In this document: positions 11,150-46,757 of the stretch, in pieces | How positions within the stretch are numbered: the stretch's first letter is position 1 | Layout of the letters: each line of letters starts with the position of its first letter | NCBI GenBank assembly: GCA_963797095.1 | Contig: CAWCNY010000001.1 | Location: forward strand, 288,001 to 352,000 | Length of the DNA stretch: 64,000 nucleotides | Reading direction: 5' to 3' | Source: an uncultured Chloroflexia bacterium | Lineage (GTDB): Bacteria > Chloroflexota > Chloroflexia > QHBQ01 > JADMIH01 | Notes under the pieces: model-generated | Seen by the model: only the letters and a program-made list of their open reading frames with translations | Database searches by the model: none | Told to the model about the DNA's origin: nothing | Made by a program: the position numbers and the translations under genes

Positions 11150-12181
11150 TTATTTCGCGGCCGGATCGGCTTCGGCCAGTAAGCGCGAACACATCCGGTG
11201 CCAAGCCTGCACTTCCTGCAAGCCAATCGGCTCCTCGGTAAACGCCTGCCCTTCCCACTCAGCCGAGATCGTCCCCATGTAGGCGGTGCGTTTCAGGAGG
11301 GCCATGATCTCCTCGTAAGGTATGGAAGGCTCGTGACCCAACTCGTCCACATGGTAGAACTTGCCGTGAATATGCCGGGCGTAAGGCAGCAACTCCGTCC
11401 ACATCTCCACAGACATGTGGCCGAACATTGTCATCGCCGTGTTCAGCTGGCCCATCACTGCCGGGCCGGCGCCGAGCCTGGCACCTGCCTCATGCAGAGC
11501 ACCAAACTTCTCGGGTATGCTCTTGTCGGTGTACCAGATCTCTTTCACGGCCTGGATCAGTTTCTCAGTCCCCCCTGCGCGTCGCAAGTTGCCCCAGTAG
11601 CCTTCCGGAATCGAGCGCATGCTCGTACTGAAGTCGGGGATGAAGCCGAGGAAAGGGGAGCCGACACGGTCGTACATCTCGCGAAATGCCACCACATCCG
11701 GGTGATCAACTGCAAGAGGCGAGTGCAACTCGCACGCAAGCTGTATGCCATATTTTTCGGCGGTGGGCACCAGCTCCTCCATGACGTCAATTCCAGCGCC
11801 CGGCTGGTAACGGTATACGGGGAAGCCCATTTTGGCGCTGCTGACGATCTGCCGCTTAATGTAGTCCAATCTCTCGTCGTGCGTCATGAGGCGGTCCTTA
11901 CGCCTCCCGATGTCGGAGTTGCCACCCAGGCAGGAAGGGATGAGGCCATTTTTCTCGAGGAGCTCCCGGAAATGGTTCGCGGTCTCGTCCGAGACGTCCG
12001 GGAAGTCGCGGAAGCTCTGGAAGCCCACCACCTCCACCGCCGGGCCGAGGCCAAGCTCGGCTATCTTTGCCAACATCTCCTCCAGGGTGTAGAGTCGCTG
12101 CTGCCATTCGTTGGTCAGGCTGAACAGGGTAGTACCGAGCACCGGCCCACCTGGCCCTTTTGCTTCTTGTTGAGCCATCAT
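11150..12181 (-). CDS. C-glycoside deglycosidase alpha subunit-like TIM barrel (SAEWEG class)
   Basis: TTLFSL, CELHS, IPDFS, HIHGKFY, SAEWEG; adjacent to a DUF6379-type gene. Confidence 0.8.
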   Translation of the reverse strand: MMAQQEAKGPGGPVLGTTLFSLTNEWQQRLYTLEEMLAKIAELGLGPAVEVVGFQSFRDFPDVSDETANHFRELLEKNGLIPSCLGGNSDIGRRKDRLMTHDERLDYIKRQIVSSAKMGFPVYRYQPGAGIDVMEELVPTAEKYGIQLACELHSPLAVDHPDVVAFREMYDRVGSPFLGFIPDFSTSMRSIPEGYWGNLRRAGGTEKLIQAVKEIWYTDKSIPEKFGALHEAGARLGAGPAVMGQLNTAMTMFGHMSVEMWTELLPYARHIHGKFYHVDELGHEPSIPYEEIMALLKRTAYMGTISAEWEGQAFTEEPIGLQEVQAWHRMCSRLLAEADPAAK

Positions 12182-12594
12182 CAACCTCCACTCGCTTCGC
12201 TTGCGACCTGGGTGGTCGAGTATCTGGTGGGAATGGTTAGGAATAGCCCGGGGCCAACCGCTATATATGGGAAGCGGAGCGCGATTTCCGCCTCAACGGT
12301 ATGCTCCTCTCCCGGCTTGACCTTGCCGGGATCCTGGACGTGCACGTGAGCTGTGTCCTGCACGAACCAGAACTCCTCGACCTTATCTTCCATTTCCTGG
12401 AGGGTGAACTGCTTGCCGTTCACCTCGAAGCGTATCGCTCCGGGGTTGACCGGCTGCCCGTCCAAGCTCAAGGCGACCTTCTCGACGCACGATATCGGCA
12501 AGGAACGATACCAGTTCAGGCGAACCCCAACTTCGTATCCGTCGTTGTTGGCTCGCAGGCTGTTATCTTCTACAATGCGCAAATCTGCTCCCAT
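12181..12594 (-). CDS. C-glycoside deglycosidase beta subunit-like (DUF6379)
   Basis: RLNWYRSLPISC, FWFVQD, PGEEH, LRFPY. Confidence 0.8.
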   Translation of the reverse strand: MGADLRIVEDNSLRANNDGYEVGVRLNWYRSLPISCVEKVALSLDGQPVNPGAIRFEVNGKQFTLQEMEDKVEEFWFVQDTAHVHVQDPGKVKPGEEHTVEAEIALRFPYIAVGPGLFLTIPTRYSTTQVASEASGG

Positions 12595-12610
12595 GCTTTG
12601 CTTACCTCCT

Positions 12611-13606
12611 TTACTCCGCAAGCAGGCGCGAGCACATATCATTCCAGGCCTTTACTTCCTGGAAGCCGATCGGCTCTTCAGTGAACGCATGCCCTTCCCA
12701 TTCGGCCGAGATCGTGCCCCTATATCCTGTGCTCTTCAGCAGGGCCATAATCGCCGAGTAGTCTATTGAAGGCTCCTGTCCCAGCTCATCGACGTGGTAG
12801 AACTTGCCGTGGCAGTGGCGCGTATATGGCAGCAGGACCGCCCAATCCTCCACCGGCATGCGGCCGTTCATCGAGATCACCGTGTGCAGCCTGCCCTCCA
12901 TCGCTGGGCTAACCCCAAAGCGCTGGAAGATCTCGTGCGCTGCGGCGAACCGCTCCGGCCCGCTGTCGATAGTGCGCCAGACCTCTTTGGTCTGCTCGAT
13001 CAGCTCTTCGGAGACTCCAGCCCGACGGGGGCCTTCCCACTGTCCCTCGGCAATCGACTTCATGCTTGAGCCGAAGTCGGGCACGAAGCCCAGGTAGGGA
13101 GTTTGCAGACGCTCGATAAGCTCCAACAGCCTGACCACGTCGGGCGACCTGGTCGTTTGAGGAGAGTGGACCTCGCACCCGATGTGCACGACCTCACGCT
13201 CGGCCAGAGGCAGTAGTCTCTCGTAGATGTGCGTGGGCAGGTTGGTGACGAGGCGCAGCACCGGAAAACCCATCTTGTGCGCGCTCATAAGCTGCCGCTC
13301 AACGTAGTCGATTATCTCGTCGTCGGTCAGGAAGCGGTCGCGCCACAGACCGTAGTCGAGATTGCCACCGAGCGAGCTTGCTACGAAGCCATATTTGTCC
13401 ATCAGGTCCCGCCAGTGGCCCGCGAACTGGTCCGACACATCGGGGTACTCTCGGAAGCTCTGGAAGCCGACCGCTTCAATCGCGGGTCCCAGCCTTAGCT
13501 CCGCGACTTTGGCCATCATGCTCTCGAGGGTATAGAGTCGCTGCTGCCACTCGTTTGTGAAGGAGTAGATAGAGACGCCAAGAATGGGTCCTTCTGTCTT
13601 CATCAC
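12611..13606 (-). CDS. C-glycoside deglycosidase alpha subunit-like (SAEWEG class)
   Basis: SIYSFTNEWQ, CEVHS, VPDFG, HCHGKFY, SAEWEG. Confidence 0.8.
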   Translation of the reverse strand: MMKTEGPILGVSIYSFTNEWQQRLYTLESMMAKVAELRLGPAIEAVGFQSFREYPDVSDQFAGHWRDLMDKYGFVASSLGGNLDYGLWRDRFLTDDEIIDYVERQLMSAHKMGFPVLRLVTNLPTHIYERLLPLAEREVVHIGCEVHSPQTTRSPDVVRLLELIERLQTPYLGFVPDFGSSMKSIAEGQWEGPRRAGVSEELIEQTKEVWRTIDSGPERFAAAHEIFQRFGVSPAMEGRLHTVISMNGRMPVEDWAVLLPYTRHCHGKFYHVDELGQEPSIDYSAIMALLKSTGYRGTISAEWEGHAFTEEPIGFQEVKAWNDMCSRLLAE

Positions 13607-14037
13607 TTTACTCCTGTCACGCCTGTCACGCCCGTGACATCTGATGCGACTTGCTTATCTGAGCAGGTGCTGGTCAGCACCAGGCACTTCCCCGGCCCGA
13701 CCACCATGTACGGCCGGCGCATAGCCAGCAGGGCGTCGACCTTGTGCTCCTCACCCGGCTTCACGCTGCCCGGCCGGTGAACCCGCACCCAGAGCGTATC
13801 TTGCACGAACCACTGCTCGTAGATCTTGTCCTCGAGCTCGGCGAAGCTGTAGCGGTGGCCGTTGATCTCGAAGATCATGTCCTTCTTGTCGATCGGCTGC
13901 CCATCAAGGCTGATCTCAAGCTGTTCAAGGCAAGACAGGGGGAGAGAACGGTACCAGTCGAGGCGAAGGCCGATTGCAAACCCGTCGTCCGTCGCCCGCA
14001 AGCTGTTGTCCTCTACGATGCGCATGTCCCAACCCAT
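13603..14037 (-). CDS. C-glycoside deglycosidase beta subunit-like (DUF6379)
   Basis: RLDWYRSLPLSC, QWFVQD, PGEEH. Confidence 0.8.
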   Translation of the reverse strand: MGWDMRIVEDNSLRATDDGFAIGLRLDWYRSLPLSCLEQLEISLDGQPIDKKDMIFEINGHRYSFAELEDKIYEQWFVQDTLWVRVHRPGSVKPGEEHKVDALLAMRRPYMVVGPGKCLVLTSTCSDKQVASDVTGVTGVTGVK

Positions 14038-14127: not shown

Positions 14128-15249
14128 CTATCCCAGTCGAATAGTGCGCCCCTCCCGCGAGGACTGGTAAATCGCCAGGATCATCTCCAGGCTCTTGATC
14201 GCCTCCTCACCCTTTATGTCCGGCTGCACCCCCGCCTCCAGACTGGCGTAGAAGTTGTCGATCTGCTGCTTGTGGCTCACACCCCAGTAGCCCCTTGGCG
14301 CTTTCCAGGTCACGGGAATCAGCAGCACTCCCCACTCGTTCAGAGTACGCATGGCTGCCTGGCCGGTGCTCTCGTTGAAAAAGGCCTGGAAGTCCGCCTC
14401 GTTCAGAGTCACCGTCGGGTCGTTGACAACGGTCAGCTCGCGGCCGTTCTTGTAAGTGATAATAGCTTTGTCGAACTCAAGCAGGGCTGTGCCGTGCTCG
14501 CAGTGTGTCTCCACAACCACGGGGGCGTTGTAGCTGAAGTTGTTGGTGGCGAAGAAGACCGACTTCAACCCGTTGCGGTAGGTGATCAGTCCCTCGGCTG
14601 TGTCTTCAGTCTCGATCTCCGGGTGGTTGCGGTTGGCAATAGTGGCTTGGATGCTGGCGATCGGATTGTCCACGAACCAGCGGGCCAGGTCCATCACGTG
14701 TATTGACTGGTCAATCATGAGAGAGCCGCCCTCTTTATCCCAGGTGCCGTGCCAGTCGCTGCGCTTGTAGTAGTCGGCGGGCTTGGTCCACGAGAGGATG
14801 ATGCGCTGCCCCACGATCTTACCCAAGCTTCCATCCGAGATGGCCGCTTTGACGGCCACTGACGCCGAGTTGTAGCGGTTCTGGCTGATGACGCCGAGGG
14901 TGACGTTGTTGCGCCGAGCGGCCTCTACCATGGCCCTTGCATCTTCCATGTTGATGGCCATCGGCTTCTCGGTGAGCACATGCTTGCCGGCATTCATGGC
15001 ATCTATGGCCATGGGCGCGTGCAGGTAGTGTGGGGTCAGGATATGCACAACGTCAATATCGTCCCGCCCTAGCATCTCGTGGTAGTCCTCGTAAGCCTCA
15101 CACCCCAGCAGGGCGGCTGCCGTCTGCCTGGCCTCGAATTTGACGTCACATACCGCCCTCACCTGCACATTGGCGAGCAGGTGCAGCGGGAAGGCGTGCA
15201 TACCGAAGATAGCACCGCAGCCTATAATCCCAACCCCATACGTTTTCAT
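14128..15249 (-). CDS. Gfo/Idh/MocA oxidoreductase (candidate glycoside 3-dehydrogenase)
   Basis: GIIGCGAI, TEKP, WHGTWDKEGG, DQSIH. Confidence 0.85.
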   Translation of the reverse strand: MKTYGVGIIGCGAIFGMHAFPLHLLANVQVRAVCDVKFEARQTAAALLGCEAYEDYHEMLGRDDIDVVHILTPHYLHAPMAIDAMNAGKHVLTEKPMAINMEDARAMVEAARRNNVTLGVISQNRYNSASVAVKAAISDGSLGKIVGQRIILSWTKPADYYKRSDWHGTWDKEGGSLMIDQSIHVMDLARWFVDNPIASIQATIANRNHPEIETEDTAEGLITYRNGLKSVFFATNNFSYNAPVVVETHCEHGTALLEFDKAIITYKNGRELTVVNDPTVTLNEADFQAFFNESTGQAAMRTLNEWGVLLIPVTWKAPRGYWGVSHKQQIDNFYASLEAGVQPDIKGEEAIKSLEMILAIYQSSREGRTIRLG

Positions 15250-16397
15250 CCTACAGTGTCCTCCTGTCTCATATGAACAACATCACCCGTGGCCGCCGAC
15301 GTGTAGATTGCCTCCAGGATCTGAGTGACGGTGTAGGCCTGCTCGGGCTTCACAACCAGCTCGGCCCCCGTCCTGATGCTGTTGAACCATGCCTCCTGCT
15401 CCTTGTACATGCCGGGGAAAAACTCCGGCGGCTGGCCGCTGCCGATGAATGTGCCGCCGAGTGCGTAGTTCTGGATGTACAGTCTGCCGTTGTGTTCGCC
15501 GTTCACCCGCACGTGGAAAGTGCGCTCGCCGCCGAAGTCGGCGGTACGCACCACCGGCCCGGGTGGTGGGTACATGTCCGCCCCCGCCTTCGTGCCGCAC
15601 AGAAGCGTCATAGTCTGGTCTGCCACGATCGTATTCAAAGCCCACGAGGCCTCCAGAATGACGGTAGCACCATTCCTGAACTTGACGAGGCCGAATGCGC
15701 TGTCTTCGACTTCGTAGGTGGCAGGGTTCCATGGGCCGAAACCATTTGCCTGGCTGCCGATCTTGCCAATCTTGTCGAAGGTCGAGCCGAGCACCGTCAC
15801 AGGCTCATAGTTCTGCAGCATCCACAAGGTGATATCCAGTGCGTGTGTGCCCAGGTCGATGAGTGGCCCGCCACCTTGCTTCTCTTTGTCTGTGAACACG
15901 CCGTGAGTAGGCACGCCACGCCTGCGGATCGCAAGGGCCTTGGCGAAGTAGATCTCGCCCAGCTCGCCCCCCTCGCACAACGACTTCATGAACAGAGTAT
16001 CCTCACGGAAGCGGTTCTGGTAGCCGATCGTGAGCAGCTTGCCGCTCGACCTGTAGGCCTCGAGCATCGCTTTGGCCTCGGCCGCGGTCTTGGCCATCGG
16101 TTTCTCGCACAGCACGTGCTTGCCGGCCCTGAGGGCAGCGACCGTGATCTCGGCGTGCGAGTTGTTGGGCGTGCAGACGTGTACCACGTCGACGTCGTCG
16201 CGCGCAACCAACTCCCGATAGTCCTCGTAGACCCCAGCATCGGGGGGACCGTAGCTCTTGGCTGCTGCCTGAGCACGCTCGACGATGATGTCGCAAAAGG
16301 CCACTATCTCCACGTCTGGCTGCCGGGAGATGCTAGGCAGGTGTTTGCGGTTGGCAATACCGCCGCACCCCACGATGCCTATTCTGATCTTGTTCAT
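15246..16397 (-). CDS. Gfo/Idh/MocA oxidoreductase, YcjS/LgdC-like (3-keto-sugar reductase or 3-dehydrogenase), copy 1
   Basis: GCGGIANRKH, CEKP, YQNRFR, RRRGVPT, GGGPLIDLGTH. Confidence 0.85.
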   Translation of the reverse strand: MNKIRIGIVGCGGIANRKHLPSISRQPDVEIVAFCDIIVERAQAAAKSYGPPDAGVYEDYRELVARDDVDVVHVCTPNNSHAEITVAALRAGKHVLCEKPMAKTAAEAKAMLEAYRSSGKLLTIGYQNRFREDTLFMKSLCEGGELGEIYFAKALAIRRRGVPTHGVFTDKEKQGGGPLIDLGTHALDITLWMLQNYEPVTVLGSTFDKIGKIGSQANGFGPWNPATYEVEDSAFGLVKFRNGATVILEASWALNTIVADQTMTLLCGTKAGADMYPPPGPVVRTADFGGERTFHVRVNGEHNGRLYIQNYALGGTFIGSGQPPEFFPGMYKEQEAWFNSIRTGAELVVKPEQAYTVTQILEAIYTSAATGDVVHMRQEDTVG

Positions 16398-16546: not shown

Positions 16547-16565
16547 AGGTTCGTTTTTGTGTCAA
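16537..16565 (-). promoter_or_regulatory. Consensus sigma70 promoter (TTGACA-N17-TATAAT) for the Gfo-Gfo-beta-alpha-beta-alpha operon
   Basis: Plus-strand TGTCAA 16560-16565 and ATTATA 16537-16542. Confidence 0.8.
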
Positions 16566-16627
16566 TTGCCTCAAACAACCAAAGTGCCGGACACTCGACC
16601 GGCAAGTCAGCACGTGAGCAACCAGCG

Positions 16628-17743
16628 ATGCAGGACAACCAACACGACCGACAACACGACCGACAACACGACCGACAACACGACCGACAACACGACTGCA
16701 ACTCCAGGCCCGAACCCGAACCTGAGCCCGAAGTGAGGCCGAAGCGCACGGGCCGACCTACCAGGGGCGACGTGGCTCGACTGGCGGAGGTCTCCGGCGC
16801 GACTGTGTCGTACGTGCTCAACGATGTGCCGGATTCCCGCATAAGCGAGGCGACCAAAGAGCGGGTGCGGCAGGCTGCAGCGAAGCTGGGGTACGTCCCT
16901 GACGAGCTGGCAAGCTCATTACGCTCCGGCCGCAATGATCTGGTGCTGCTGCCCTTTTTCGACTGGCCATACAACCAGAGTTCCATCTCCTTCTTGCAGG
17001 AGCTTGCCAGGCAGCTGTCCGGAATGGGTTATTCCGTCATGCTGCGCTTTTTCGGGCAAGAGGAGAAGCGTGCCCTGGCGCGCAGGATCGCCTCGTTTCA
17101 CCCTGCGGGTGTGATCGTTATGTCGGAGGAGCTGTCGCCGGACGACCGCGAAATCCTGGCTCGCAACGGCGTGCAGGCGGTGCTCGTGTATGGGGGAACG
17201 ACGGGGGACCCGGCGCGTACGGTGCCCATAGACTTTACCCATGCCGGAGAGCTCGTCGGGCAGTATCTAGTCGATAAAGGGCACCGCCGCCTGGCAGGGG
17301 TGGTACCGCGCGACCGGCGCATCCTCAGGATAGGTCTGCAGCGGTTCGAGGGGCTGCGGCGAGTAGGCGAGCGGTTGGGCGCGTCAGTTGAGCGCGTTGA
17401 CATGAGCTATGACATCGGTGAGGCGGCCAGGCTCGCTGCCGCATGGCAGCGAGGTCCTCGGCCCAGCGCCGTATTCGCCTATAACGACGAGTACGCCTTC
17501 CTGCTGCTCGCCGCGCTACAGGACGCGGGCCTGCGAGTGCCGGACGACATCGCCCTGGTGGGCTGCGATGACTTGACCTTATGCCTCCTGACCAGGCCGC
17601 GCCTGACGTCCGTGCACACCGGGATACCTGAGCGCATCCAGGCGCTGGTCACATACTTCGATGCGCTGATGCAGAGCCGGACGCCCGAAAAGCCGCCCAG
17701 TTTTGATTTGTCGTTCGACCTGGTGGTCAGGGAGTCGGCATAG
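16628..17743 (+). CDS. LacI family transcriptional repressor (start uncertain)
   Basis: PTRGDVARLAEVSGATVSYVLN HTH, LGYVP, YNDEYA, GLRVPDDIALVGCDD, RPRLTSV, LVVRES. Confidence 0.9.
   Translation: MQDNQHDRQHDRQHDRQHDRQHDCNSRPEPEPEPEVRPKRTGRPTRGDVARLAEVSGATVSYVLNDVPDSRISEATKERVRQAAAKLGYVPDELASSLRSGRNDLVLLPFFDWPYNQSSISFLQELARQLSGMGYSVMLRFFGQEEKRALARRIASFHPAGVIVMSEELSPDDREILARNGVQAVLVYGGTTGDPARTVPIDFTHAGELVGQYLVDKGHRRLAGVVPRDRRILRIGLQRFEGLRRVGERLGASVERVDMSYDIGEAARLAAAWQRGPRPSAVFAYNDEYAFLLLAALQDAGLRVPDDIALVGCDDLTLCLLTRPRLTSVHTGIPERIQALVTYFDALMQSRTPEKPPSFDLSFDLVVRESA
16638..16732 (+). repeat. 12-bp (HDRQ)n and 6-bp (PE)n in-frame tandem repeats at the LacI 5' end
   Basis: ACAACACGACCG about 5 copies, then CCCGAA-like units. 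Confidence 0.85.
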
Positions 17744-18995: not shown

Positions 18996-19397
18996 ATGCT
19001 GGATCCACAGACCATTCAGATGAAAGGCTTCAGGAATGTCGTGCAGGACGGCCAGGCGGTTGGCTTCCAGGTGCGGGTGCGCTGTCCTTACTACCGAGGC
19101 ATCTGGCTCTCGCTTCTGGAGAAGGCTGAGCTGGCCGTAAATGGCGAGACGTTCCCGCCTGAGAAAGTGCGGTGGACGATAAACGGCGAGAACTTCACGA
19201 GCCCACAATTGGCCGTGCAGTCCCAAAAGCGCTGGCTCTTCGAGGAGCCGGTGACCCTCACTGTGGACAAGCCCGGCGGCTTAGTGCCGGGCCTCCACGA
19301 CGTCGAGGTGTCGATCAGCTGGCGTTGGTCGTACATCCCAATCGAGTTTCAACCAACGACGAATATTTCCCACAGGAAACTGGTTCTGGTTCGATAG
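18996..19397 (+). CDS. C-glycoside deglycosidase beta subunit-like (DUF6379)
   Basis: GFRNV, RCPYYRGIWLS, KPGGL.PG.H, WSYIP. Confidence 0.85.
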   Translation: MLDPQTIQMKGFRNVVQDGQAVGFQVRVRCPYYRGIWLSLLEKAELAVNGETFPPEKVRWTINGENFTSPQLAVQSQKRWLFEEPVTLTVDKPGGLVPGLHDVEVSISWRWSYIPIEFQPTTNISHRKLVLVR

Positions 19398-35226: not shown

Positions 35227-35325
35227 CTAGCTGTGCAGTGCTAAACGCTCCGTCGTTCCGCCCATCACAATGCCCCACGTGCGGTTGTCGATGCGCCGCG
35301 TTGCCTCGTGATCTACGAGGGTGCG
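35227..35325 (-). pseudogene. Orphan 3' fragment of a beta-subunit gene of the 38141 type
   Basis: Encodes TLVDHEATRRIDNRTWGIVMGGTTE, nearly identical to the tail of 38141-38605; DNA 35251-35316 matches about 38175-38240. Confidence 0.7.
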
Positions 35326-35348: not shown

Positions 35349-35753
35349 TTAGCGCGCCAGCTCCAACACCTTGCGGTCGTGCGTACGGAAGCCATATGGC
35401 AGCGCATAGGTGATCATCAGCCGCTGCACCAACTCTACCTCGTGCGAGCCCGGTTTCAGCCCGCCCGGCTTCTCCACCGTCAGGATACCTACATCGCCGA
35501 ACTCCCAGCGATCGCGGCACTGGTCCTCGATCTCGGACAGCCTGAAGGTGTTACCGTGAAGGGTTAGAGTCACCTTGTCGGGCGAGAAGTGCTCGCCGTC
35601 CACCGACAGGTCGGCGGGGCGCAGCACAGAGAGGACCACACCTCGATAGTAAGCCAAGCGAGCGCCGATCTGGAAACCGGTAACCTCACCGTCCTGCTCG
35701 ATGTTCCCGAACTCTTCGCCCACTATCATGTATTTGTCGAGCATCTTGATCAT
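35349..35753 (-). CDS. C-glycoside deglycosidase beta subunit-like (YYRG class)
   Basis: RLAYYRG, RWEFGD, KPGGLKPGSH. Confidence 0.85.
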   Translation of the reverse strand: MIKMLDKYMIVGEEFGNIEQDGEVTGFQIGARLAYYRGVVLSVLRPADLSVDGEHFSPDKVTLTLHGNTFRLSEIEDQCRDRWEFGDVGILTVEKPGGLKPGSHEVELVQRLMITYALPYGFRTHDRKVLELAR

Positions 35754-38144: not shown

Positions 38145-38605
38145 GCTCTCACTCCTTGCAATTCTATGTTCTCCGTCGTGCCGCCCATCACAATGCCCCA
38201 CGTGCGGTTATCGATGCGGGGAGTTGCCTCGTGATCCACAAGAGTGCTGTAGCGCATGTAGTAAATATCCAGACTGAACCGCACTGTTACCTCGTGCTCC
38301 CCCGGCGCGAGACCCCCCGGCTTGGCGACAGTCAGGACGCCAAACTTGCCGTACTCCCAGCGGTTGTCAGGATCATTCTCGAATTGCGCCAGCGGGTAGG
38401 TCTTCTCGCCCAGCGTCACCGAAATCTTGTCGGGCGAGAAGCTCTCGCCGTCCACCACAAGCTCGATCCCCTTGAGCATCGAGAGATAAAAGCCCCGGTA
38501 GTATGGCACGCGCACATTGATTTGGAACCCCGTGATGCGCCCGTCCTGCTCCACGTTCTTGAAGCTCTCCTTGGCGATCACGTATTTGTCGGATATGGTC
38601 TTCAT
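38141..38605 (-). CDS. C-glycoside deglycosidase beta subunit-like with an extended C-terminal loop
   Basis: RVPYYRG, RWEYG, KPGGLAPGEH, then about 15-20 extra residues. Confidence 0.8.
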   Translation of the reverse strand: MKTISDKYVIAKESFKNVEQDGRITGFQINVRVPYYRGFYLSMLKGIELVVDGESFSPDKISVTLGEKTYPLAQFENDPDNRWEYGKFGVLTVAKPGGLAPGEHEVTVRFSLDIYYMRYSTLVDHEATPRIDNRTWGIVMGGTTENIELQGVRA

Positions 38606-39687
38606 CTCCCTGCCTCGCTTCCCACCAGAGCCGGGCCTGTTGTGCCTGCCCTGCTGCCCGTGTCGTCTGCTTGCGTTTCGCCCAACAGATGCCTGAGCAT
38701 GACCTGATGGCGGCGCACCTGCTCTACGCTATCTGATTCTGTGTCGTCCACGAGCCAGCCGTTGCCTTCATACTCGCTCGAGATGTAGCCGTTGTATCCT
38801 CCCTCGATCAGCACCGGCACAACTTCTTCGTAGGGGATGGCCTCCTCCCGGTACCCGCTAACAGGGTCCTCAACCATATCGTTGAACTTGCCGTGGACGT
38901 GGAGTATGTGCGGCATGTACTCTGCCAGCCGCTGTGGGTCGGCGAAGATGAAGCGGGCCGCGCGGTTTGCCATGGCGATCTCGTCCTGTGTGCCCCCCAG
39001 GCGCTCGACCTCTGCGGGTATCTGTCCTATGCTTTCGTGGCTGTTGTACGCTTTGGTAATGAAGCCGGCGATGTGCGGGCGCATACCGTTGGCCAGCCAG
39101 TAGCTGAGGAAGATTCGAGGCATATGCTTGGTGAAAATCCCCATGTCGACTGTGAAGCCGAGGTAGGGGGAGCCAACCTCGCGCATCATGGTCACGTGCT
39201 TCTGCATCCATACATCATCCAGCTGGTGCGGCGCATGGACCTCGAGTGCCTGCTTGACATTGTATTTCTCGGCATACGGAGCCACACGCGCCAGGATGGA
39301 GGGCGGGGTGAGGTGCAACACCCGGATAACGGTGCAGCCAAGGCGATTCGCGAACACGATGTCTCGGATCGCCAACTCGACCATCTCGTCCTCGGTCATG
39401 AGGCGGCCGCTGTACCTGTTGATGTCGAGGAACATATCGTGGGCGACGGGAGTGCGGCCGTACTTGGCAAGCCAGCCTTTCCACTGCGCCAGCCACTCAT
39501 CGCCGGGATCGGGGAAGTTGGGCACCATCTGCTCCCCGATCACCTCAATTCCGGGGATACCCAGATCGGCTGCAGTCTTGATGCAATCTTCCAGGCTCAT
39601 CTTGCCTATGAAGTAGTCGTGCCGCCAGCTATAGAACGTAACACAACGCTTGATGTCGTGCGGCACGGTCGTGTCTGTCTCATCCAT
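38602..39687 (-). CDS. C-glycoside deglycosidase alpha subunit-like (divergent SLYSFQEE-class member)
   Basis: VTFYSW, LEVHAP, VDMG, HVHGKF, SSEYEG. Confidence 0.85.
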   Translation of the reverse strand: MDETDTTVPHDIKRCVTFYSWRHDYFIGKMSLEDCIKTAADLGIPGIEVIGEQMVPNFPDPGDEWLAQWKGWLAKYGRTPVAHDMFLDINRYSGRLMTEDEMVELAIRDIVFANRLGCTVIRVLHLTPPSILARVAPYAEKYNVKQALEVHAPHQLDDVWMQKHVTMMREVGSPYLGFTVDMGIFTKHMPRIFLSYWLANGMRPHIAGFITKAYNSHESIGQIPAEVERLGGTQDEIAMANRAARFIFADPQRLAEYMPHILHVHGKFNDMVEDPVSGYREEAIPYEEVVPVLIEGGYNGYISSEYEGNGWLVDDTESDSVEQVRRHQVMLRHLLGETQADDTGSRAGTTGPALVGSEAGR

Positions 39688-39699: not shown

Positions 39700-40779
39700 T
39701 CACGCCGACGCGGCTAGATACTTGTTAACCATGGCGTGCCACTTCTGCACTTCTTGCATGGCGGCATTCGGATCCGCGGTGAATCTGCTGCCCTCCCACT
39801 CGGCAGAGATAGAGCCGCTGTAGCCGCTCTCCTTGAGCAGCTTGATAATTTCGCCGTAAGGGATAGAAGGCTCAACTCCGCTCTCGTCTATGTGGTAGAA
39901 CTTGCCGTGGATGTGGCGGCTGTAAGGGAGCACCTCGCGCCAGGTCTCTACCGGCATGTGCCCGAACATCGTAATTACCGAGTTGAGCGAGCCGACGAGC
40001 GATGCCGGCGCCTGGTAGCGCTGGGCTGCGCCGGCAAGGGCGGCAAACTTCTGCATGGACGGCTCATCGCTGTGCCAGATCTCTCTCGTCGTTTCGATCA
40101 GCGGCTCGGGCGCGCCCATCTGCCGCAGCATCGGCCAATATCCATCGGGCGGCTTGGTCATGGAGCAGCTGAGGTCGGGCACGAAGCCAAGGTAAGGCGA
40201 CCCGATGCGGTCGTAAAGCTCCCGCAACTCGATAACTTCAGGATGTGAGGGGGAGAGGGGCGAATGCAGTTCGCAGGCCACCTGCACCTCCGCCCGCTCG
40301 GCGGCCGGCACCAGCCTCTGTATGGCTTCGGGTCCGGCGAGCGCCTGAATGCGCAGCACCGGAAAGCCCAGCTTACGGGCCGCCTCGATCTGCGGCTCTA
40401 TGTAGGCTACCGTTTCCTCCACCGTCATTAGCCGGCCCGGGAAGCGGCCCAGGTCTACGTTGCCGGACAGCGAGGTGGGCCGCAGACCCAGGCGCGTCGT
40501 AACTTCCCTGAACAGCTCGGCGAACTCATCAGTGATATCGGGGTAGTCGCGTATGCTCTGGAAGCCCACGACCTCGACGCCGGGCCCCACTCCCAGCTCT
40601 GCTACCTTCTCCATCAACTGCTCAAGAGTGAAGCGGCGTGTCTGCCACCGGCTGGTGAAGCTGTAGAGGGTAGTACCCAGGACGATATTGCCGGTGTTTG
40701 CGCCGCCTGCGCCGCCTGCGCCGCCTGCGCCGCCTGCGCCGTCCGTCCCGCTTGTGCTAGATCTATTGTAAGTGTTCAT
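39700..40779 (-). CDS. C-glycoside deglycosidase alpha subunit-like (SAEWEG class)
   Basis: GTTLYSFT, CELHS, PDLS, HIHGKFY, SAEWEG; (GGA)n repeat at the N-terminus. Confidence 0.85.
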   Translation of the reverse strand: MNTYNRSSTSGTDGAGGAGGAGGAGGANTGNIVLGTTLYSFTSRWQTRRFTLEQLMEKVAELGVGPGVEVVGFQSIRDYPDITDEFAELFREVTTRLGLRPTSLSGNVDLGRFPGRLMTVEETVAYIEPQIEAARKLGFPVLRIQALAGPEAIQRLVPAAERAEVQVACELHSPLSPSHPEVIELRELYDRIGSPYLGFVPDLSCSMTKPPDGYWPMLRQMGAPEPLIETTREIWHSDEPSMQKFAALAGAAQRYQAPASLVGSLNSVITMFGHMPVETWREVLPYSRHIHGKFYHIDESGVEPSIPYGEIIKLLKESGYSGSISAEWEGSRFTADPNAAMQEVQKWHAMVNKYLAASA

Positions 40780-40789: not shown

Positions 40790-41182
40790 TCACGCGGCTA
40801 CCTGTGTTGTGGCATACTGCCAAGTTGGGGTCAAGAACTTGCCCGGGCCCACCAGGATGTAGGGAGCACGCACCGCCAGTTGTAGCTCTAACCTGTGGCT
40901 CTCGCCCGCCTTCACCCGGCCCGGGTCGCGCACGCCCAGCAGAGCGGAGTCGAGCACGAACCAGAACTCATCGGCATGTGCGGCCAGCTCCTCCAGCCGG
41001 TATCGGTGCCCGTTGATGCCGAAGCGAATAGCGTCGGGCGGCACAGGCCGCCCGTCCAGGCTCAACTCGACCCTTTCGACGCACGACAGAGGCAGTGACC
41101 TGTACCAGTTGAGGCGGGCCTCCAACTGGTAGCCTTCTTGTGTAGCCCGCAGGCTGTTGTCCTCTATTATGTTCAGAGGCAT
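40790..41182 (-). CDS. C-glycoside deglycosidase beta subunit-like (WYRSLPLS class)
   Basis: RLNWYRSLPLSC, FWFVLD, RAPY. Confidence 0.85.
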   Translation of the reverse strand: MPLNIIEDNSLRATQEGYQLEARLNWYRSLPLSCVERVELSLDGRPVPPDAIRFGINGHRYRLEELAAHADEFWFVLDSALLGVRDPGRVKAGESHRLELQLAVRAPYILVGPGKFLTPTWQYATTQVAA

Positions 41183-41198: not shown

Positions 41199-42266
41199 CT
41201 ACTTGGTCTCGCCGAGCAACTGCTTGAACATCTCTTGCTCGCGGCGCACCTGCTCCACGCTGTCTACCTGGTAAATGTCCTGGATGTGGCGGTTGCCTTC
41301 GTACTCGCTGGACAGGTAGCCATTGTAGCCGCCCTCGATCAGCACGGGCACCACCTCGTCGTAGGCAATGCTGTACTCGGTGTAGTCGGGCAGCATCTCG
41401 TAGAACTTGGCGTGGATATGCACGAAGTGCGGCATGAACTCGAGCAAGCGCTGCGGGTTCTCGTAAATCTGGAACTTGGCCATGCGGGCCATCTCGCGGT
41501 CGTAGTCGTTCGCGCCCATTTTCTCCACCTCGTCAGGTAGGTTGTCGAGGTTGTCGTGGTTGTTGAACTTCTCGAGGACGTAGTTCACGATATTCTGGTG
41601 CGCGCCGTTCCTGACGAGGCGGTCGCTCGTCACGCGAGGGAAGCGCCTGGTGAAGATGCCCATGTCCGGGGTGAAGCCGAGATATGGAGAGCCGAGCCGA
41701 TCCATGAGCTTGATTCGATCTTTGAACCACTCTTCCTCGAAGTGGTGCGGCGCGTGGATCTCGATGCCCATCTTGACATCGTATTTCTCGGCGAATGGCA
41801 CCGCTCGCTCCAACACGGGCAGCTCGGTGTTGTGGATGACTCGGATGACTTTGCAGCCGAGGCGGTTGGCGAAGCGCAGGTCGCGCACCACCGAGTCAAC
41901 CATCTCGTCCTCGGTCATTTTGCGGCCCTTGTAGATGTTCCAGTCGAGGAACATGTCGTGGCATACGGGTGTACGGCCATACTTGCGCATCCACTCATGC
42001 CACTGCTCGAAGAAGGCCTCGCCCGGCTCGGGGAAGCCAGGCACCATCTGCTCGCCGATGATCTCGATACCTGGTATGTCGAGCTTTTCGCAGGTGGCGA
42101 TAATGTCCTCCAGGCTCATTTTGCGCAGGAAGTACTCTTCCTGGAAGCTATACAGGCTCACGCCGCGCTTGATGGTGGGGGTCTTGGCGGTGCTTGCACC
42201 GGTGCCGGCGCCAGATACACTTGGGCTACTCATCATCTTCTCCTTCGGCTCCATCAGAGCCTCCAT
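41199..42266 (-). CDS. C-glycoside deglycosidase alpha subunit-like (SLYSFQEE class)
   Basis: IEIHAP, PDMG, HIHAKFYEM, SSEYEGNRH. Confidence 0.85.
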   Translation of the reverse strand: MEALMEPKEKMMSSPSVSGAGTGASTAKTPTIKRGVSLYSFQEEYFLRKMSLEDIIATCEKLDIPGIEIIGEQMVPGFPEPGEAFFEQWHEWMRKYGRTPVCHDMFLDWNIYKGRKMTEDEMVDSVVRDLRFANRLGCKVIRVIHNTELPVLERAVPFAEKYDVKMGIEIHAPHHFEEEWFKDRIKLMDRLGSPYLGFTPDMGIFTRRFPRVTSDRLVRNGAHQNIVNYVLEKFNNHDNLDNLPDEVEKMGANDYDREMARMAKFQIYENPQRLLEFMPHFVHIHAKFYEMLPDYTEYSIAYDEVVPVLIEGGYNGYLSSEYEGNRHIQDIYQVDSVEQVRREQEMFKQLLGETK

Positions 42267-42269
42267 TTA

Positions 42270-42662
42270 TCAGTGGACTAATTCCAGAACTTTGTGATCG
42301 TGACCTCTGAAGCCTGCAGGCACATACGATATCTTCAGGTGCTGTTCCACATCTACCTCGTGCCGGCCCGGCTTGAGCCCACCCGGCTTGTTCACGGTCA
42401 CGATACCGACCTCACCGAACTCCCAGCGGTCCACGTCCTGGTCTTCCATCTCGGCGAGTTTGTAGGTGTTCCCGTGCAGGGTGACCGTCAACCCCTCCGG
42501 GGCGATGCTCTCGCCATCCACACTAAGTTGGGGAGGATCGACCAGGGATATCACGATGCCACGATAATATGGCAAGCGCAGTCCGACTTGGAACCCCGTG
42601 ACCTCACCGTCCTTCTCCACGTTCCTGAACTCCTCACCCACGATCATGTATTTGTCAAACAT
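42270..42662 (-). CDS. C-glycoside deglycosidase beta subunit-like (YYRG class)
   Basis: MFDKY, RLPYYRG, RWEFGE, KISYVP. Confidence 0.85.
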   Translation of the reverse strand: MFDKYMIVGEEFRNVEKDGEVTGFQVGLRLPYYRGIVISLVDPPQLSVDGESIAPEGLTVTLHGNTYKLAEMEDQDVDRWEFGEVGIVTVNKPGGLKPGRHEVDVEQHLKISYVPAGFRGHDHKVLELVH

Positions 42663-42690: not shown

Positions 42691-43743
42691 TTAGCGCCCA
42701 GCAGAAACGGCCGACGTCTCGCCAAGCAGCCGTTTGAACATCACGTGTTGGCGGCGCACCTGCTCTACGCTGTCTACGGGGAAAGCATCCTGGATATGGC
42801 GGTTGCCCTCGTACTCGCTCGACAGATAGCCGCCGTAGCCGCCCTCGATCAGCACGGGGATGATCTCGTCATAGGGGATGCTGTACTCTGTGTAGTCGGG
42901 CAGCATTTCATTGAACTTGGCGTGAATGTGGACCACGTGCGGCATGATCGGCAGGAGGCGGCGCGGGTCGACGTAGATCATGGCTCGGCTCGTATAGGAG
43001 GCCGCCCACTTGTCAACAGGCCCACCGCCCATCTTCTCAACATCTTCCGGCAGGTGCTCCTGTCCTTCATGGCTGTTGTAGACCTCGACGATGTGATCGA
43101 CGATGTCTTGGCGAGCTCCGTCGCGCACCCACCGCTCGCTGACTACCCGTGGCATACGCTTGGTGAAAATGCCCATGTCGGGAGTGAAGCCCAGGTAAGG
43201 AGAGCCAAGCCGCTCCATTAGCTCCAACAGCTCCTGCATTGCGGGATTGTCGGGGTGGTTGGGCGCGTGTATCTCCACGCCTATCTTGACGTCAAGCTCC
43301 TCGGCGTAGGGCACCGAGCGCGCCAGCACGTTCAGGCTGGCCGTGTGGATCCCGCGGATGACTTTGCAGCCGAGGTGGTTGGCGAAGCGCAAGTCGCGCA
43401 CTACCGATTGCACCTGCTCATCCTCGGTCATGGTGCGGCCCTTGTGCTTGTTCCAGTCGAGGAACATGTCGTGGCACACCGGAGTGCGGCCGTACTTGCG
43501 CATCCACTCGTGCCAGTTCTGGAAAAATGCCTCACCAGGCTCGGGGAAGCCAGGGGCCATCTGCTCGCCGATGATCTCGATACCTGGTATATCGAGCTTT
43601 TCGCAGGTGGCGATAATGTCCTCCAGGCTCATTTTGCGCAGGAAATACTCTTCCTGGAAGCTGTACAGGCTCGCCCCTCGCTTTATGTTGTTGGCGGGGA
43701 CTTGCTTGGTGCTGTTTGCCTCGGTTGTGCTTGCGTTGCTCAC
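42691..43743 (-). CDS. C-glycoside deglycosidase alpha subunit-like (SLYSFQEE class)
   Basis: VEIHAP, PDMG, HIHAKF, SSEYEGNRH. Confidence 0.85.
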   Translation of the reverse strand: MSNASTTEANSTKQVPANNIKRGASLYSFQEEYFLRKMSLEDIIATCEKLDIPGIEIIGEQMAPGFPEPGEAFFQNWHEWMRKYGRTPVCHDMFLDWNKHKGRTMTEDEQVQSVVRDLRFANHLGCKVIRGIHTASLNVLARSVPYAEELDVKIGVEIHAPNHPDNPAMQELLELMERLGSPYLGFTPDMGIFTKRMPRVVSERWVRDGARQDIVDHIVEVYNSHEGQEHLPEDVEKMGGGPVDKWAASYTSRAMIYVDPRRLLPIMPHVVHIHAKFNEMLPDYTEYSIPYDEIIPVLIEGGYGGYLSSEYEGNRHIQDAFPVDSVEQVRRQHVMFKRLLGETSAVSAGR

Positions 43744-43785: not shown

Positions 43786-44181
43786 TCAGGCGGCTAGATT
43801 GAGGTCTTTATGGTCGTTGCCGCGGAAGCCCCGACCCGGTATGTAACTAATGTCCAGGTGGATGAACAGGTCGAACTTGTGCTCGCCAGGGGCAAGGCCA
43901 CCCGGTTTGTTCATCCTCAGGATGCCCACTTCGCCGAACTCCCACCGGAAGTCGGGCATCGACTTGAGGGCTGTGAGAGGGTACGTCTGGCCATGCAAGG
44001 TTACGCTGATCTTTTCGGGTGGGATGTGCTCCCCGTCAACAGCCAGGTCTATTGTCTTGATGAGCGACACGCAAATGCCGCGGTAGTACGGAAGGCGAGC
44101 GCCGACCTGGAAGCCGGTAATCTCGCCGTCCTTGCTGACGTTGCGGAATTCCTCGCCCACGATCATGTATCTGTCAAACAT
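43786..44181 (-). CDS. C-glycoside deglycosidase beta subunit-like (YYRG class)
   Basis: MFDRY, RLPYYRG, RWEFGE, ISYIP. Confidence 0.85.
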   Translation of the reverse strand: MFDRYMIVGEEFRNVSKDGEITGFQVGARLPYYRGICVSLIKTIDLAVDGEHIPPEKISVTLHGQTYPLTALKSMPDFRWEFGEVGILRMNKPGGLAPGEHKFDLFIHLDISYIPGRGFRGNDHKDLNLAA

Positions 44182-44203: not shown

Positions 44204-45259
44204 CTACCGGGCGGCAGTTTCCGTAGCCGGAACCTCCCCGATCAGCTGCTTGAACATTGCATGTTGCCGGCGAACCTGCTCGGTGCTGTCCACCGGGAAG
44301 GCATCCTGTATATGGCGGTTGCCTTCGTACTCGCTCGACAGGTGGCCATCGAAACCCGCCTCGATCAGCACGGGCACAACCTCGTCATAGGCGATGCTGT
44401 ATTCGGTGTAATCGGGCAGCATCTCGTAGAACTTGGCGTGGATGTGGAAGATGTAGTCCTTAATCTTCAGCAGGTCGCGAGGTTTCTCGAAGATGCCCAG
44501 GCGCATGCCATACCCGAGCTGGAAAGCCTCCTGCTCCGTGGCTCCGATCTTCGTTGACGCCTCTTGCAGATCGTCCATGTAGAGGCCGCTGTTGTATAGC
44601 TCTACGAACCTATCGGCAATCTCCTGCCGCAAGCCGTCGCGCACCCAGCGCTCGCTGACCACGCGCGGAAAGCGGCGCGTGAAGATGCCCATATCGGGCA
44701 GGAAGCCGTAGTGGCGCGTGCCCGTGCGCTGGATCACCTCCAGGTGCAACTCGATCCATTCGCCGTTCAGGCGGCGGGGTGAGTGGATCTCCACCGCGAG
44801 CTTGATATCGCGCTCCTCGGCGTAGGGCAGAGCCAACTCGATCCACTTCGGCGCGATACCCGAACCGACGCGGATCACCTTGCAGCCAAGCTTGTGAGCG
44901 AACTCGATGTCGCGCACCAGGTCGTGACGAGCCTCCTCGTCAGTCATCATCCGTCCCTCGTACTTGTTCCAGTCGAGGAAGAGGTCGTGGCACACCGGAG
45001 TGCGGCCGTACTTGCGCATCCACTCGTGCCAGTTCTGGAAAAATGCCTCACCAGGCTCGGGGAAGCCAGGGGCCATCTGCTCGCCGATGATCTCGATACC
45101 TGGTATGTCGAGCTTTTCGCAGGTGGCGATAATGTCCTCCAGGCCCATTTTGCGCAGGAAATACTCTTCCTGGAAGCTGTACAGGCTCGCCCCTCGCTTT
45201 ATGTTTTGGGCGGGGACCTTTGCCGGTCCTGGTGTGCCTTGTGTATCAGCGTTAGCCAT
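44204..45259 (-). CDS. C-glycoside deglycosidase alpha subunit-like (SLYSFQEE class)
   Basis: VEIHS, PDMG, HIHAKFYEM, SSEYEGNRH. Confidence 0.85.
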   Translation of the reverse strand: MANADTQGTPGPAKVPAQNIKRGASLYSFQEEYFLRKMGLEDIIATCEKLDIPGIEIIGEQMAPGFPEPGEAFFQNWHEWMRKYGRTPVCHDLFLDWNKYEGRMMTDEEARHDLVRDIEFAHKLGCKVIRVGSGIAPKWIELALPYAEERDIKLAVEIHSPRRLNGEWIELHLEVIQRTGTRHYGFLPDMGIFTRRFPRVVSERWVRDGLRQEIADRFVELYNSGLYMDDLQEASTKIGATEQEAFQLGYGMRLGIFEKPRDLLKIKDYIFHIHAKFYEMLPDYTEYSIAYDEVVPVLIEAGFDGHLSSEYEGNRHIQDAFPVDSTEQVRRQHAMFKQLIGEVPATETAAR

Positions 45260-45297
45260 ATTCTCATGCCTCCTTCCGAGGGCCCGAACAGGCGGGT

Positions 45298-46275
45298 CTA
45301 TGTCGCTGCCTTGATGCATCCCTCGATGTATCGTTTGATCATAGCCTGGTGCTCCTGCACCATTGCCAGCGAATCGGGCGCGTCACCCTCAAACTCGCTG
45401 GACATCCACCCTTTGTAGCCGCCCGCTAACAATTCATGCACCACTTCCTCGTAGCGCAGGTTCGGCTCGGTGCCGTTTTCCATGCTGAAGAACTTGCCGT
45501 GCACATGCATAATGTAGGACATGATCGTGCGTAGGGCCGCCGGCTCCGAGTGGCCAAAGCTGCCCCAGAAGCTCTCGACAGCACTGACCTGGCTTTTTTG
45601 CAAGCCGTGATGCTCCAATTCGGCCAGAGCCTCCGGCAGTGGGGTCTCTGCGTTCCACAGCTCCACCGCCCTCGTTACGATGCTCTCTGCCACCCCGCGG
45701 GCACGGGCCCGCTCAGTGGCGAACTGCGGCACCGAGCGGGCGAAGATACCCATGTCCGGGATAAGACCGAGATGGTCGGAGGAAATCCGCTCTACCTGCC
45801 TGATCAGCTCCTGCGTTTGCGGAGCTTCGATCATCAAGGGCACGTGCAATTCGTAGCCCATCTTCAAACCGAGCTTCTCAGCGTAGGGCAGCAGCCGCTC
45901 GATCACCGGGTAAACGAAGTACTGGAGTCGCACCACCCGGAAGCCGAGCTTTGCCGCGCCAATTAACTGCGGAACAGTGTATTCGACCAGCTCATCGGGC
46001 GTGAGGTCTCGGCCGGGCAGCATGAAGGGGTCAGCGTAGCTGCCATACGAAGTGGGCGTCAGGCCGTTACGCTCAATAGAGCTTTTGAAGATGCGCTCGA
46101 ACTCGGACGTAACGTAGGGGAAGCCCCGGTGATGAGCCGGCCCCACGATTTCCACCCCGCCGCCAAGCCCGGCGGCTTTCTGCATCATGTCCTCGAAGGA
46201 CCACTGGAATGAGCAATACTCGTTCGTGAAGCTATGGAACGATATGCCCACTTTGAAGGGCTCTGTTATGGTCAC
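45298..46275 (-). CDS. C-glycoside deglycosidase alpha subunit-like (divergent class)
   Basis: ISFHSFTNE, YELHVP, PDMG, HVHGKF, SSEFEG. Confidence 0.8.
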   Translation of the reverse strand: MTITEPFKVGISFHSFTNEYCSFQWSFEDMMQKAAGLGGGVEIVGPAHHRGFPYVTSEFERIFKSSIERNGLTPTSYGSYADPFMLPGRDLTPDELVEYTVPQLIGAAKLGFRVVRLQYFVYPVIERLLPYAEKLGLKMGYELHVPLMIEAPQTQELIRQVERISSDHLGLIPDMGIFARSVPQFATERARARGVAESIVTRAVELWNAETPLPEALAELEHHGLQKSQVSAVESFWGSFGHSEPAALRTIMSYIMHVHGKFFSMENGTEPNLRYEEVVHELLAGGYKGWMSSEFEGDAPDSLAMVQEHQAMIKRYIEGCIKAAT

Positions 46276-46757
46276 GATATGTCCTCCGGCCCTCCACTCT
46301 CAAGACGCAGACGTTTGCTGGAGGAGTTGTAAAAGGAAAATCTCCCCGCGGTCGCGTAAGGCTCTACAGTGACCAGGGTGCCCTGGACGTCATGGACGCC
46401 GGGCTCGAGCGGTGCATGCGGCACAAAGAGGTCGGCGTAATCGAGGATGAACCACCAGACCTTACTCAGGCCGCGAAGCTCATCGAGTTTGTGGCCGTAG
46501 TTATTGAGGATGAGGACGATGTTTTGGGGGTCTATTTGCTCACCGTCAATGCTCAGCTCTATTCCTTCGATGCACGAGAGCGGAAGAGACCTGTAACTGG
46601 TCAGCCTGACCTTGAGCATGACGCCGGGCTGGCTATTGTGTACTGAGTTACGCAAGCCCTGGTCGGCAATAAAGCCCCGATCTTTAGGATGCCGCGCAAT
46701 TGCTATCGGGGACGAGGCTGCGGTCCCCGCCGGCAATGCTCTCTCCTGGCAATCCAT
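46272..46757 (-). CDS. C-glycoside deglycosidase beta subunit-like (SYRSLPLS class)
   Basis: RLTSYRSLPLSC, WWFILD, PGVHDV; AAGGAG RBS before ATG 46757. Confidence 0.8.
   Translation of the reverse strand: MDCQERALPAGTAASSPIAIARHPKDRGFIADQGLRNSVHNSQPGVMLKVRLTSYRSLPLSCIEGIELSIDGEQIDPQNIVLILNNYGHKLDELRGLSKVWWFILDYADLFVPHAPLEPGVHDVQGTLVTVEPYATAGRFSFYNSSSKRLRLESGGPEDIS

Follow-up and report, generated by a model that had tools for sequence, protein, structure and literature searches.

The stretch of 64,000 nucleotides analysed here (positions 288,001 to 352,000 of contig CAWCNY010000001.1, assembly GCA_963797095.1; hereafter, the window) belongs to an uncultured Chloroflexia bacterium and carries a large array of genes for putatively heterodimeric C-glycoside deglycosidases (CGDs). 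Open reading frame calling and translation of the window place 14 alpha loci (a01 to a14) and 14 beta genes (b01 to b14) between positions 11150 and 46757. All 14 small reading frames score 65-134 bits in PF19906 (CGDB, formerly DUF6379), whose cut-off is 27.6 bits, all 14 alphas match PF01261, and the 6.02-Mb, 8-contig genome has exactly 14 PF19906 matches, every one inside the window. Local alpha and beta profiles run over the whole genome also found no copy beyond the window's 14 and 14, and PF19906 matched in none of 14 control genomes. For LpxC and WhiB, the genome gave no match. Every alpha copy keeps the motifs E-x-H, D, H-x-H-x-K-F and E-[YWF]-E-G, and every beta copy keeps R-x-x-[YWS]-Y-R-[GS]. 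Thirteen alphas are intact, while a04 is broken by a one-base frameshift; one contig of a metagenome run (X1; a single contig of low depth, 2.5) is without one base at 23229, which gives a04 an open frame of 333 amino acids. A 15th PF01261 gene (26808-27770) misses the alpha profile and is hence no alpha subunit. Of the 22 co-oriented genes between 29283 and 46757, 10 are alphas and 10 are betas; an aldo-keto reductase and one of the DgpA orthologs account for the other two. The preliminary description, made from the letters of the window, had given the same gene counts, motifs and 20-of-22 figure and had expected the small proteins to be DUF6379 members, in all of which it was correct.

That description had also assigned the genes to the DgpBC/CarBC/DfgAB type of CGD, and structure matches and catalytic residues bear this out. 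PDB searches with a11 and with a10 gave eight matches apiece, all from one small set including DgpC1, 7bvr, 7dnm and 7bvs, with E 3e-118 for a11 to 8qvc_A and E 5e-63 for a10 to 7dnm_A; those betas that were searched matched DUF6379, DfgB, DgpB and AgCarC2 chains. In AgCGD2, the metal ligands are given as E147, D179, H269, K271 and E305, with H149 as the catalytic residue and E307 in support (PMC8563793), and the columns of all seven residues, located through the 7dnm alignment, are conserved in 14 of 14 alphas, a04 being read across its frameshift. Tyr39 of DgpB is described as required for the cleavage of C-glycosides and dispensable for that of O-glycosides (PMC10628242), and its column is an invariant tyrosine in all 14 betas. 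The glycoside 3-oxidoreductase expected of such systems is linked to the array in the form of three DgpA orthologs. By every sequence criterion applied, the array proteins belong to the C-glycoside deglycosidases. A single-chain O-glycoside eliminase of the AtOGE type, which PMC10628242 describes as having neither beta subunit nor lid and a His where CGDs have their first Glu ligand, was ruled out because the alphas carry E-x-H and have matched beta genes. Elsewhere, fused beta-alpha genes of 500-570 amino acids match both profiles (loci L002:1498-3207, L018:9398-11110 and L019:9599-11104), and PDB 8qrz matches as both alpha and beta subunit.

Apart from one pair on the plus strand (18996-20398), a co-oriented run of 30 genes extends from 46757 to 20478, in which no gap exceeds 183 bp and most genes have purine-rich, ribosome-binding-like sequences, and several junctions are gene overlaps of 4 bp. 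Promoter- and terminator-like sites in 27.5-47.4 kb were no more frequent than in shuffles. As a mobile-element signature, PF00589 was searched for, and none of its 27 matches in the genome lies in the window, the nearest being about 25 kb past the window end; the G+C content at third codon positions of window genes (0.60-0.87) overlaps the genome range, mostly toward its upper end. In the 1.2-kb gap between a LacI gene and the plus-strand pair, two segments of about 100-120 nucleotides are duplicated with about 82% identity (17752-18098 and 18679-18966), possibly a duplicated regulatory region.

Such a density of paralogs could also come from an assembly that joins loci of several organisms, as the preliminary description had considered: the 8-contig genome may be metagenome-derived, no congeneric genome matches (0 of 25 over the PF19906 cut-off, many of them incomplete), and no single metagenome contig spans the region. 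The contig, however, is 592 kb long, the genome is 93% complete with 0.62% contamination, and the window keeps a G+C content of 0.56-0.63 as well as the 4-bp overlaps. Four runs of soil metagenomes, which come from two studies, had 7-12% of sampled words in common; over 22500-42499, their contigs touch 26, 18, 17 and 19 of the 30 bins, and the junctions b05/a05, b06/b07, b09/a08 and a06/a07 are bridged. Among the contig pieces listed, some of runs X2 and X3 are free of mismatches, these two runs possibly standing near the sample of origin, and some of X1 and X4 are 90-99% identical. Independent assemblies, furthermore, carry orthologs of individual paralogs: for those of a05, a07, a08, a11 and a12, the longest contig is 112,251 bp in each case; for three protein clusters it is 23,859 bp, and for the orthologs of a12, a11 and b11 it is 3,978 bp (membership of one contig being taken from equal bp values). 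With external orthologs, bridging contigs, 4-bp overlaps and low contamination, a chimeric assembly is rejected, and we regard it as extremely improbable.

The paralogs have diverged widely. Pairwise identities among the window genes are 24-69% for alphas and 19-68% for betas, with no recent whole-gene duplicates. A finished tree of 49 alphas and a quick tree of 49 betas divide the window genes alike into five lineages of 8, 3, 1, 1 and 1 members, in each of which alphas and betas are equal in number. In the large clade, seven of the eight alphas have as their tree sister an external ortholog that is 69-93% identical, and a13 reaches no more than 62% identity to any external protein; a search with the a12 protein gave 1,603 matches at E 1e-40 or better, of which 120 were listed. 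When 117 external homologs were added (FastTree only; a01, a02, a04, a10 and a14 left out), the window paralogs did not group together (8 label changes for 8 genes). Among paralogs, the ratio of nonsynonymous to synonymous rates (dN/dS) comes to about 0.24-0.54, and dS approaches saturation. Recent amplification in place was thus ruled out by silent sites that are largely saturated and by the scattering of paralogs among external homologs; judged from trees and codons, the genes duplicated long ago, and every copy has since been inherited as a separate lineage. Four ortholog groups differ from one another at nine columns that are constant inside each group, and three of the nine fall in loop or lid segments matching pocket residues of AgCGD2. 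The part of the preliminary description that called the array diversified is upheld in this sense.

Traces of exchange among the copies were found as well. Between a12 and a13, silent differences affect 1 of 74 shared codons in a block of residues 17-100 as opposed to 47 of 131 elsewhere, and the other 27 alpha pairs differ at 22-54% in the same block. This is probably gene conversion, while the near-identity may also be a polishing artefact. The 77-nucleotide remnant after b09 (35248..35324) was probably left behind when a further beta paralog was lost; in one contig of run X1, an in-register crossover joins this remnant to the b10 copy. Taken together, these comparisons point to an array that still turns over by gene conversion and loss.

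Around the pairs lie genes that would complete a catabolic route (Table 1). DgpA ortholog 1 matches DgpA1 (9m3d, E 6e-121) and DgpA (7xr9, E 1e-118), with the next non-DgpA match at E 4e-31, and no DgpA copy was found outside the array in the whole genome at E 1e-40. Besides the three DgpA orthologs, the cluster has three further Gfo/Idh/MocA proteins. A four-step glycoside route is described in PMC13273386, and the glucokinase, the IolE-like barrel, the Gfo/Idh/MocA proteins and the aldo-keto reductase could, on their families and neighbourhood, complete it. Homologs of the Gfo protein at 21596-22852 (39-44% identical) stand near CGD genes in genome G460 and at loci L031 and L020, and those of the IolE-like protein (47-55%) do so in G460 and at L019, L020 and L031. 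The system also reaches past 11150-46757, to about 1.8-58 kb. On one side, all eight genes of a putative aglycone module (1827..10355) have tblastn matches of 32-77% identity beside a single CGD pair on a plasmid of Deinococcus aetherius, and subsets of the module flank CGD genes at L010, L012 and L015. On the other side, the ABC importer has a counterpart, 45-73% identical, at an actinomycete locus (L030, G461:C2:95000-114999) that also holds a DgpA homolog and two CGD pairs, whose alphas nest in the 8- and 3-member clades of the window; this nesting and the likeness of the importers are hinting at transfer between lineages. Since module and importer each have counterparts beside CGD genes elsewhere, the functional unit is about 56 kb. 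At 90% identity, the cluster of the extradiol dioxygenase has 19 members and those of the CGD genes have 2-4; because the dioxygenase is far more widespread, the aglycone module is suggested to travel separately from the CGD genes.

Table 1. Coding sequences and other features of the array and its surroundings
Feature	Position	Strand	Evidence
Alpha a01 (AgCGD2-like clade)	11150..12184	-	PF01261, motifs, tree
Beta b01	12181..12594	-	PF19906
Alpha a02 (AgCGD2-like clade)	12611..13606	-	PF01261, motifs, tree
Beta b02	13603..14037	-	PF19906
Gfo/Idh/MocA oxidoreductase	14128..15249	-	domain match
DgpA ortholog 1, putative nicotinamide adenine dinucleotide (NAD)-dependent glycoside 3-dehydrogenase	15246..16397	-	homology
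LacI-family regulator	16559..17743	+	domain match
Beta b03	18996..19397	+	PF19906
Alpha a03 (short-lid form)	19439..20398	+	PF01261, motifs
Luciferase-like monooxygenase family protein	20478..21431	-	domain match
Gfo/Idh/MocA oxidoreductase, candidate 3-keto-sugar reductase	21596..22852	-	domain match and neighbourhood
Alpha a04, frameshifted near 23229	22954..23953	-	open reading frame analysis
Beta b04	23968..24375	-	PF19906
DgpA ortholog 2, 74% identical to ortholog 1	24543..25694	-	
Glucokinase	25810..26805	-	TIGR00749, 242 bits (cut-off 225)
IolE-like TIM barrel, candidate 2-hydroxy-3-keto-glucal hydratase	26808..27770	-	
Gfo/Idh/MocA oxidoreductase, diverged paralog of 21596-22852	27954..29183	-	
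Beta b05	29283..29687	-	PF19906
Alpha a05	29731..30720	-	PF01261, tree
Aldo-keto reductase	30785..31714	-	domain match
Beta b06, without adjoining alpha	31756..32148	-	PF19906
Beta b07	32181..32576	-	PF19906
Alpha a06	32580..33641	-	PF01261
Alpha a07	33638..34687	-	PF01261
Beta b08	34789..35181	-	PF19906
77-nucleotide remnant, 90% identical to b10 3' end	35248..35324	-	sequence identity
Beta b09	35349..35744	-	PF19906
Alpha a08	35766..36803	-	PF01261
DgpA ortholog 3, 71% identical to ortholog 1	36960..38144	-	
Beta b10 (long C-terminal loop)	38141..38605	-	PF19906, alignment
Alpha a09	38602..39687	-	PF01261
Alpha a10 (AgCGD2-like clade)	39700..40779	-	PF01261; 7dnm E 5e-63
Beta b11	40790..41182	-	PF19906
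Alpha a11	41199..42233	-	PF01261; 8qvc E 3e-118
Beta b12	42270..42662	-	PF19906
Alpha a12	42691..43743	-	PF01261
Beta b13	43786..44181	-	PF19906
Alpha a13, N-terminal ~250 nucleotides nearly identical to a12	44204..45259	-	codon comparison
Alpha a14	45298..46275	-	PF01261
Beta b14	46272..46757	-	PF19906
Alpha/beta hydrolase	1827..3002	-	aglycone module
NAD-dependent epimerase/dehydrogenase	3061..4005	-	aglycone module
FAA hydrolase	4005..5036	-	aglycone module
SMP-30/lactonase	5003..6061	-	aglycone module
SDR	6243..7088	-	aglycone module
Cyclase	7317..8111	-	aglycone module
Flavin adenine dinucleotide (FAD) monooxygenase	8166..9305	-	aglycone module
Extradiol dioxygenase	9309..10355	-	aglycone module
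LuxR/NB-ARC/TPR regulator, putatively linked to the cluster	47012..50182	-	position
LacI-family regulator	50470..51609	+	domain match
ABC importer: SBP_bac_5 binding protein, two permeases, two ATPases	51882..58078	+	

Several other features were noted along the window and the genome. A 33-bp tandem repeat (3.8 copies, 98% match) occupies 10677-10814, in the gap separating the array from the aglycone module, and a perfect 14-bp tandem repeat (10.8 copies) lies at 61005-61155, upstream of a luciferase-like monooxygenase domain. An MFS transporter is fused to a cytidylate-kinase-like domain (PF07690 and PF13189) at 58198-60267; a P-type ATPase frame at 21-1646, assigned by eye from motifs, is interrupted by a stop at 431; and about 25 tRNA genes are packed in 11 kb elsewhere in the same genome (G000:C2:1272514-1283690).

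We consider that the region is probably an aryl-glycoside catabolic cluster, in which the known oxidise-eliminate-hydrate-reduce route would have its bond-cleaving step multiplied to 14 heterodimers that divide the labour among them. In this route, glycosides would be taken up by the ABC importer, as its conserved linkage suggests, and oxidised at sugar C3 by the three DgpA orthologs, for which the homology is strong. An alpha/beta CGD would then bind the 3-keto-glycoside at the subunit interface, where the metal/His site is predicted to release the aglycone by beta-elimination; the IolE-like barrel may hydrate the resulting glycal, the Gfo or aldo-keto reductases may reduce the product, and the glucokinase would feed glycolysis. 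Monooxygenase, dioxygenase and hydrolase genes of the aglycone module are presumed to degrade the aromatic ring. Because the paralogs are old and separately inherited and have differing pocket-forming loops, the pairs would most likely differ from one another in the aglycone or the linkage position (C6, C8 or O) that they serve. In the preliminary description, the array had been called a library for many plant C- and O-glycosides; this range of substrates is suggested by the pathway context. Other aryl C- or O-glycosides, such as microbial ones of angucycline or anthraquinone type, might be the main substrates, the cluster serving detoxification or scavenging; CGDs are described to accept diverse aglycones including carminic acid (PMC8563793), and PuCGE also cleaves 3-keto-O-glucosides (PMC10628242). 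We find this doubtful, albeit conceivable, since the aglycone module has the gene types described for A-ring flavonoid catabolism of the fde/ifc kind (PMC11069340), the glucokinase points to released glucose, and the equivalent of Tyr39 is kept in all betas.

Several observations weigh against the division of labour among 14 pairs proposed above. Pairing inside the 8-member clade is weakly resolved, the best adjacency scheme ranking 259th of 40,320 and falling to rank 1,874 with the converted block masked, and it is suggestive at best that just three of the nine lineage-specific columns map to known pocket loops. Among 30 scorable strain variants in alphas and betas (37 of 273 variants were examined, a small and biased sample), 13 are silent and 17 change an amino acid, the corresponding numbers for the IolE-like gene being 7 and 0, and six of the seven changes in a11 fall in its N-terminal tail; the variant sample does not show strong purifying selection. 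Also, a04 is frameshifted in this assembly, and the assignment of the IolE-like protein as a hydratase relies on a weak match to the 2-hydroxy-3-keto-glucal hydratase 8ro4 (E 1.4e-7).

The mixed strain variants and the broken a04, together with the gene remnant and one degenerate-looking Gfo paralog, would fit dosage amplification or neutral accumulation, with copies that are redundant or decaying. This is contradicted by the wide divergence of alphas and betas, in which recent whole-gene duplicates are missing, by the external orthologs of seven large-clade alphas and by catalytic residues that are intact throughout; we thus think it quite improbable. The unresolved pairing, on the other hand, might mean that alphas and betas of the 8 + 8 clade (a05-a09 and a11-a13; b05-b10, b12 and b13) pair promiscuously. 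As both subunits line the aglycone pocket (PMC8563793), such mixing would give far more than eight specificities, to which conversion would add chimeric alphas. In line with this, alphas adjoin alphas and betas adjoin betas in places, two alphas and two betas have no partner in the clade's usual alpha-then-beta order, the mirror signal within the clade is weak, a13 looks mosaic, and the clade betas are 40-68% identical. Across the 14 presumed pairs, the mirror-tree correlation is r = 0.895, which none of 19,999 shuffles reaches and which is mostly clade structure; at the level of clades, co-phylogeny is strong. The equal numbers of alphas and betas in five lineages and the strict adjacency of all 14 pairs in G460 speak against free mixing, as does the report that the subunits of PuCGD and EuCGD, though far more distant from each other, are not exchangeable (PMC8563793); we accordingly rate promiscuous pairing as rather unlikely.

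Genomes with arrays of more than 10 pairs, which the preliminary description had supposed to be uncommon, are indeed few. In 1,730 genomes drawn evenly from five phyla (Bacillota being outside the sample), no more than five copies were found in any; carriers over the PF19906 cut-off numbered 1 of 400, 2 of 400, 1 of 300, 1 of 330 and 1 of 300 by phylum draw. These searches prefilter candidates, and the counts are lower bounds because the prefilter in one draw caught just 11 of this genome's 14 copies. Among 60 relatives, many of them incomplete, a single genome exceeded the cut-off, with one fused beta-alpha gene. On plasmids, 22 of 72,556 records match, with 1-3 places each among the 15 matches listed, and a scan of metagenome contigs with b08 gave at least nine loci, mostly short, with no array among the matches listed. 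The beta family as a whole is diverse, with 1,070 clusters at 50% identity. Thirteen genomes chosen as carriers have 1-5 copies each, except for the Bryobacterales genome G460, which has 14 pairs, all adjacent: 12 within 64 kb of one 80-kb contig and two on another (loci L025-L029; C149:9400-73267 and C19:3797-13245), with IolE-like and Gfo homologs alongside. Only one of 120 relatives of G460 matches, and once. A single array shared by transfer was rejected, since the best identities of G460 alphas to window alphas are 30-52% and mostly other subclades have expanded; for the same reasons, the two mega-clusters would have arisen largely independently. Arrays of this size are therefore rare, yet not unique. 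The compound picture of rare generalists in unrelated phyla independently building mega-clusters of about 14 eliminases, with the eight alphas and eight betas here mixing combinatorially and reshuffled by conversion, so that one operon-like run gives dozens of pockets, seems to us improbable as a whole.

What is new here is scale and organisation, the chemistry and the pathway being already known. The 14 pairs are about twice the largest number we found described. The enzyme pairs known to cleave C-glycosides are a handful, and every one of them is selective for linkage position; 14 pairs in one host, covering five lineages and eight close paralogs with catalytic sites intact, are a natural panel for mapping pockets to substrates and for examining subunit exclusivity. 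The reverse reaction was recently shown to make aryl-C-glycosides (PMC13273386), which gives the panel biocatalytic value. A second 14-pair genome in another lineage suggests, furthermore, that a few specialists may handle much of the C-glycoside turnover in soil.

Among known systems, Catenibacillus comes closest in number. C. decagia has six dgpBC clusters plus DfgAB and 11 dgpA homologs, and C. scindens has four DgpBC (PMC11170127); as in the window, several dgpBC sets occur together with dgpA genes, and this diversity was proposed to explain a broad substrate range. Carriage of several copies is thus already published on a smaller scale, and the claim that the expansion is undescribed stands insofar as we found no count in print above those of Catenibacillus, while G460 shows that it is not unique. 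The searched literature, which mostly excluded subscription journals, had no tandem array and none with more than seven sets (the Mori/Catenibacillus supplements could bear on counts), nor a paper behind PDB 8qvc, 8qrz or 9m3a-d. In contrast to the window, Catenibacillus species are described as gut anaerobes with six clusters plus DfgAB at most and separately located dgpA genes, whereas here 14 pairs form one 36-kb array, 12 pairs' worth of which lie in or near one co-oriented run. DgpA-DgpB/C of the gut strain PUE (PuCGD/PuCGE; 7bvr, 7exz, 7xr9) resembles the window in its NAD-dependent Gfo/Idh/MocA oxidase partner, instead of a FAD oxidase, and in its metal site, His and beta-Tyr39, but strain PUE has one pair as compared with 14 pairs, three DgpA copies and an attached ring-cleavage module for aglycones. 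PMC12724307 places DgpABC homologs almost only in Bacillota; unlike that range, related strains of the window host occur in soil metagenomes.

CarB/C, AgCGD1/2, MtCGD and PurBC of soil Actinomycetota (7dnm) are likewise heterodimeric CGDs, and a10, a01 and a02 belong to the AgCGD2-like clade; those systems, however, use FAD-dependent CarA/PurA, with one or two pairs described per organism, while the window cluster has no GMC oxidase, the genome's one PF05199 match being on another contig. The closest solved relative of the 8-member clade is the pair 8qvc/8umc (alpha E 3e-118, beta E 9e-27), of which we take 8qvc to be a Deinococcus CGD. The plasmid locus of D. aetherius has the same eight aglycone gene types as the window but a single pair with a GMC oxidase, and the 8qvc clade is expanded eightfold in the window. 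For the aglycone module, A-ring flavonoid catabolism of fde (Herbaspirillum) and ifc (Variovorax) is described with a FAD monooxygenase, a glyoxalase-fold dioxygenase and a DHPON-like hydrolase (PMC11069340), the same gene types when compared by description (PMC11069340, PMC11303751). Finally, the expansions reported for SAR202 (PMC6946804) are like the window in that one catabolic enzyme family is greatly multiplied for recalcitrant organic matter; the families described there are different, and what is multiplied in the window is a two-subunit lyase in one tandem array.

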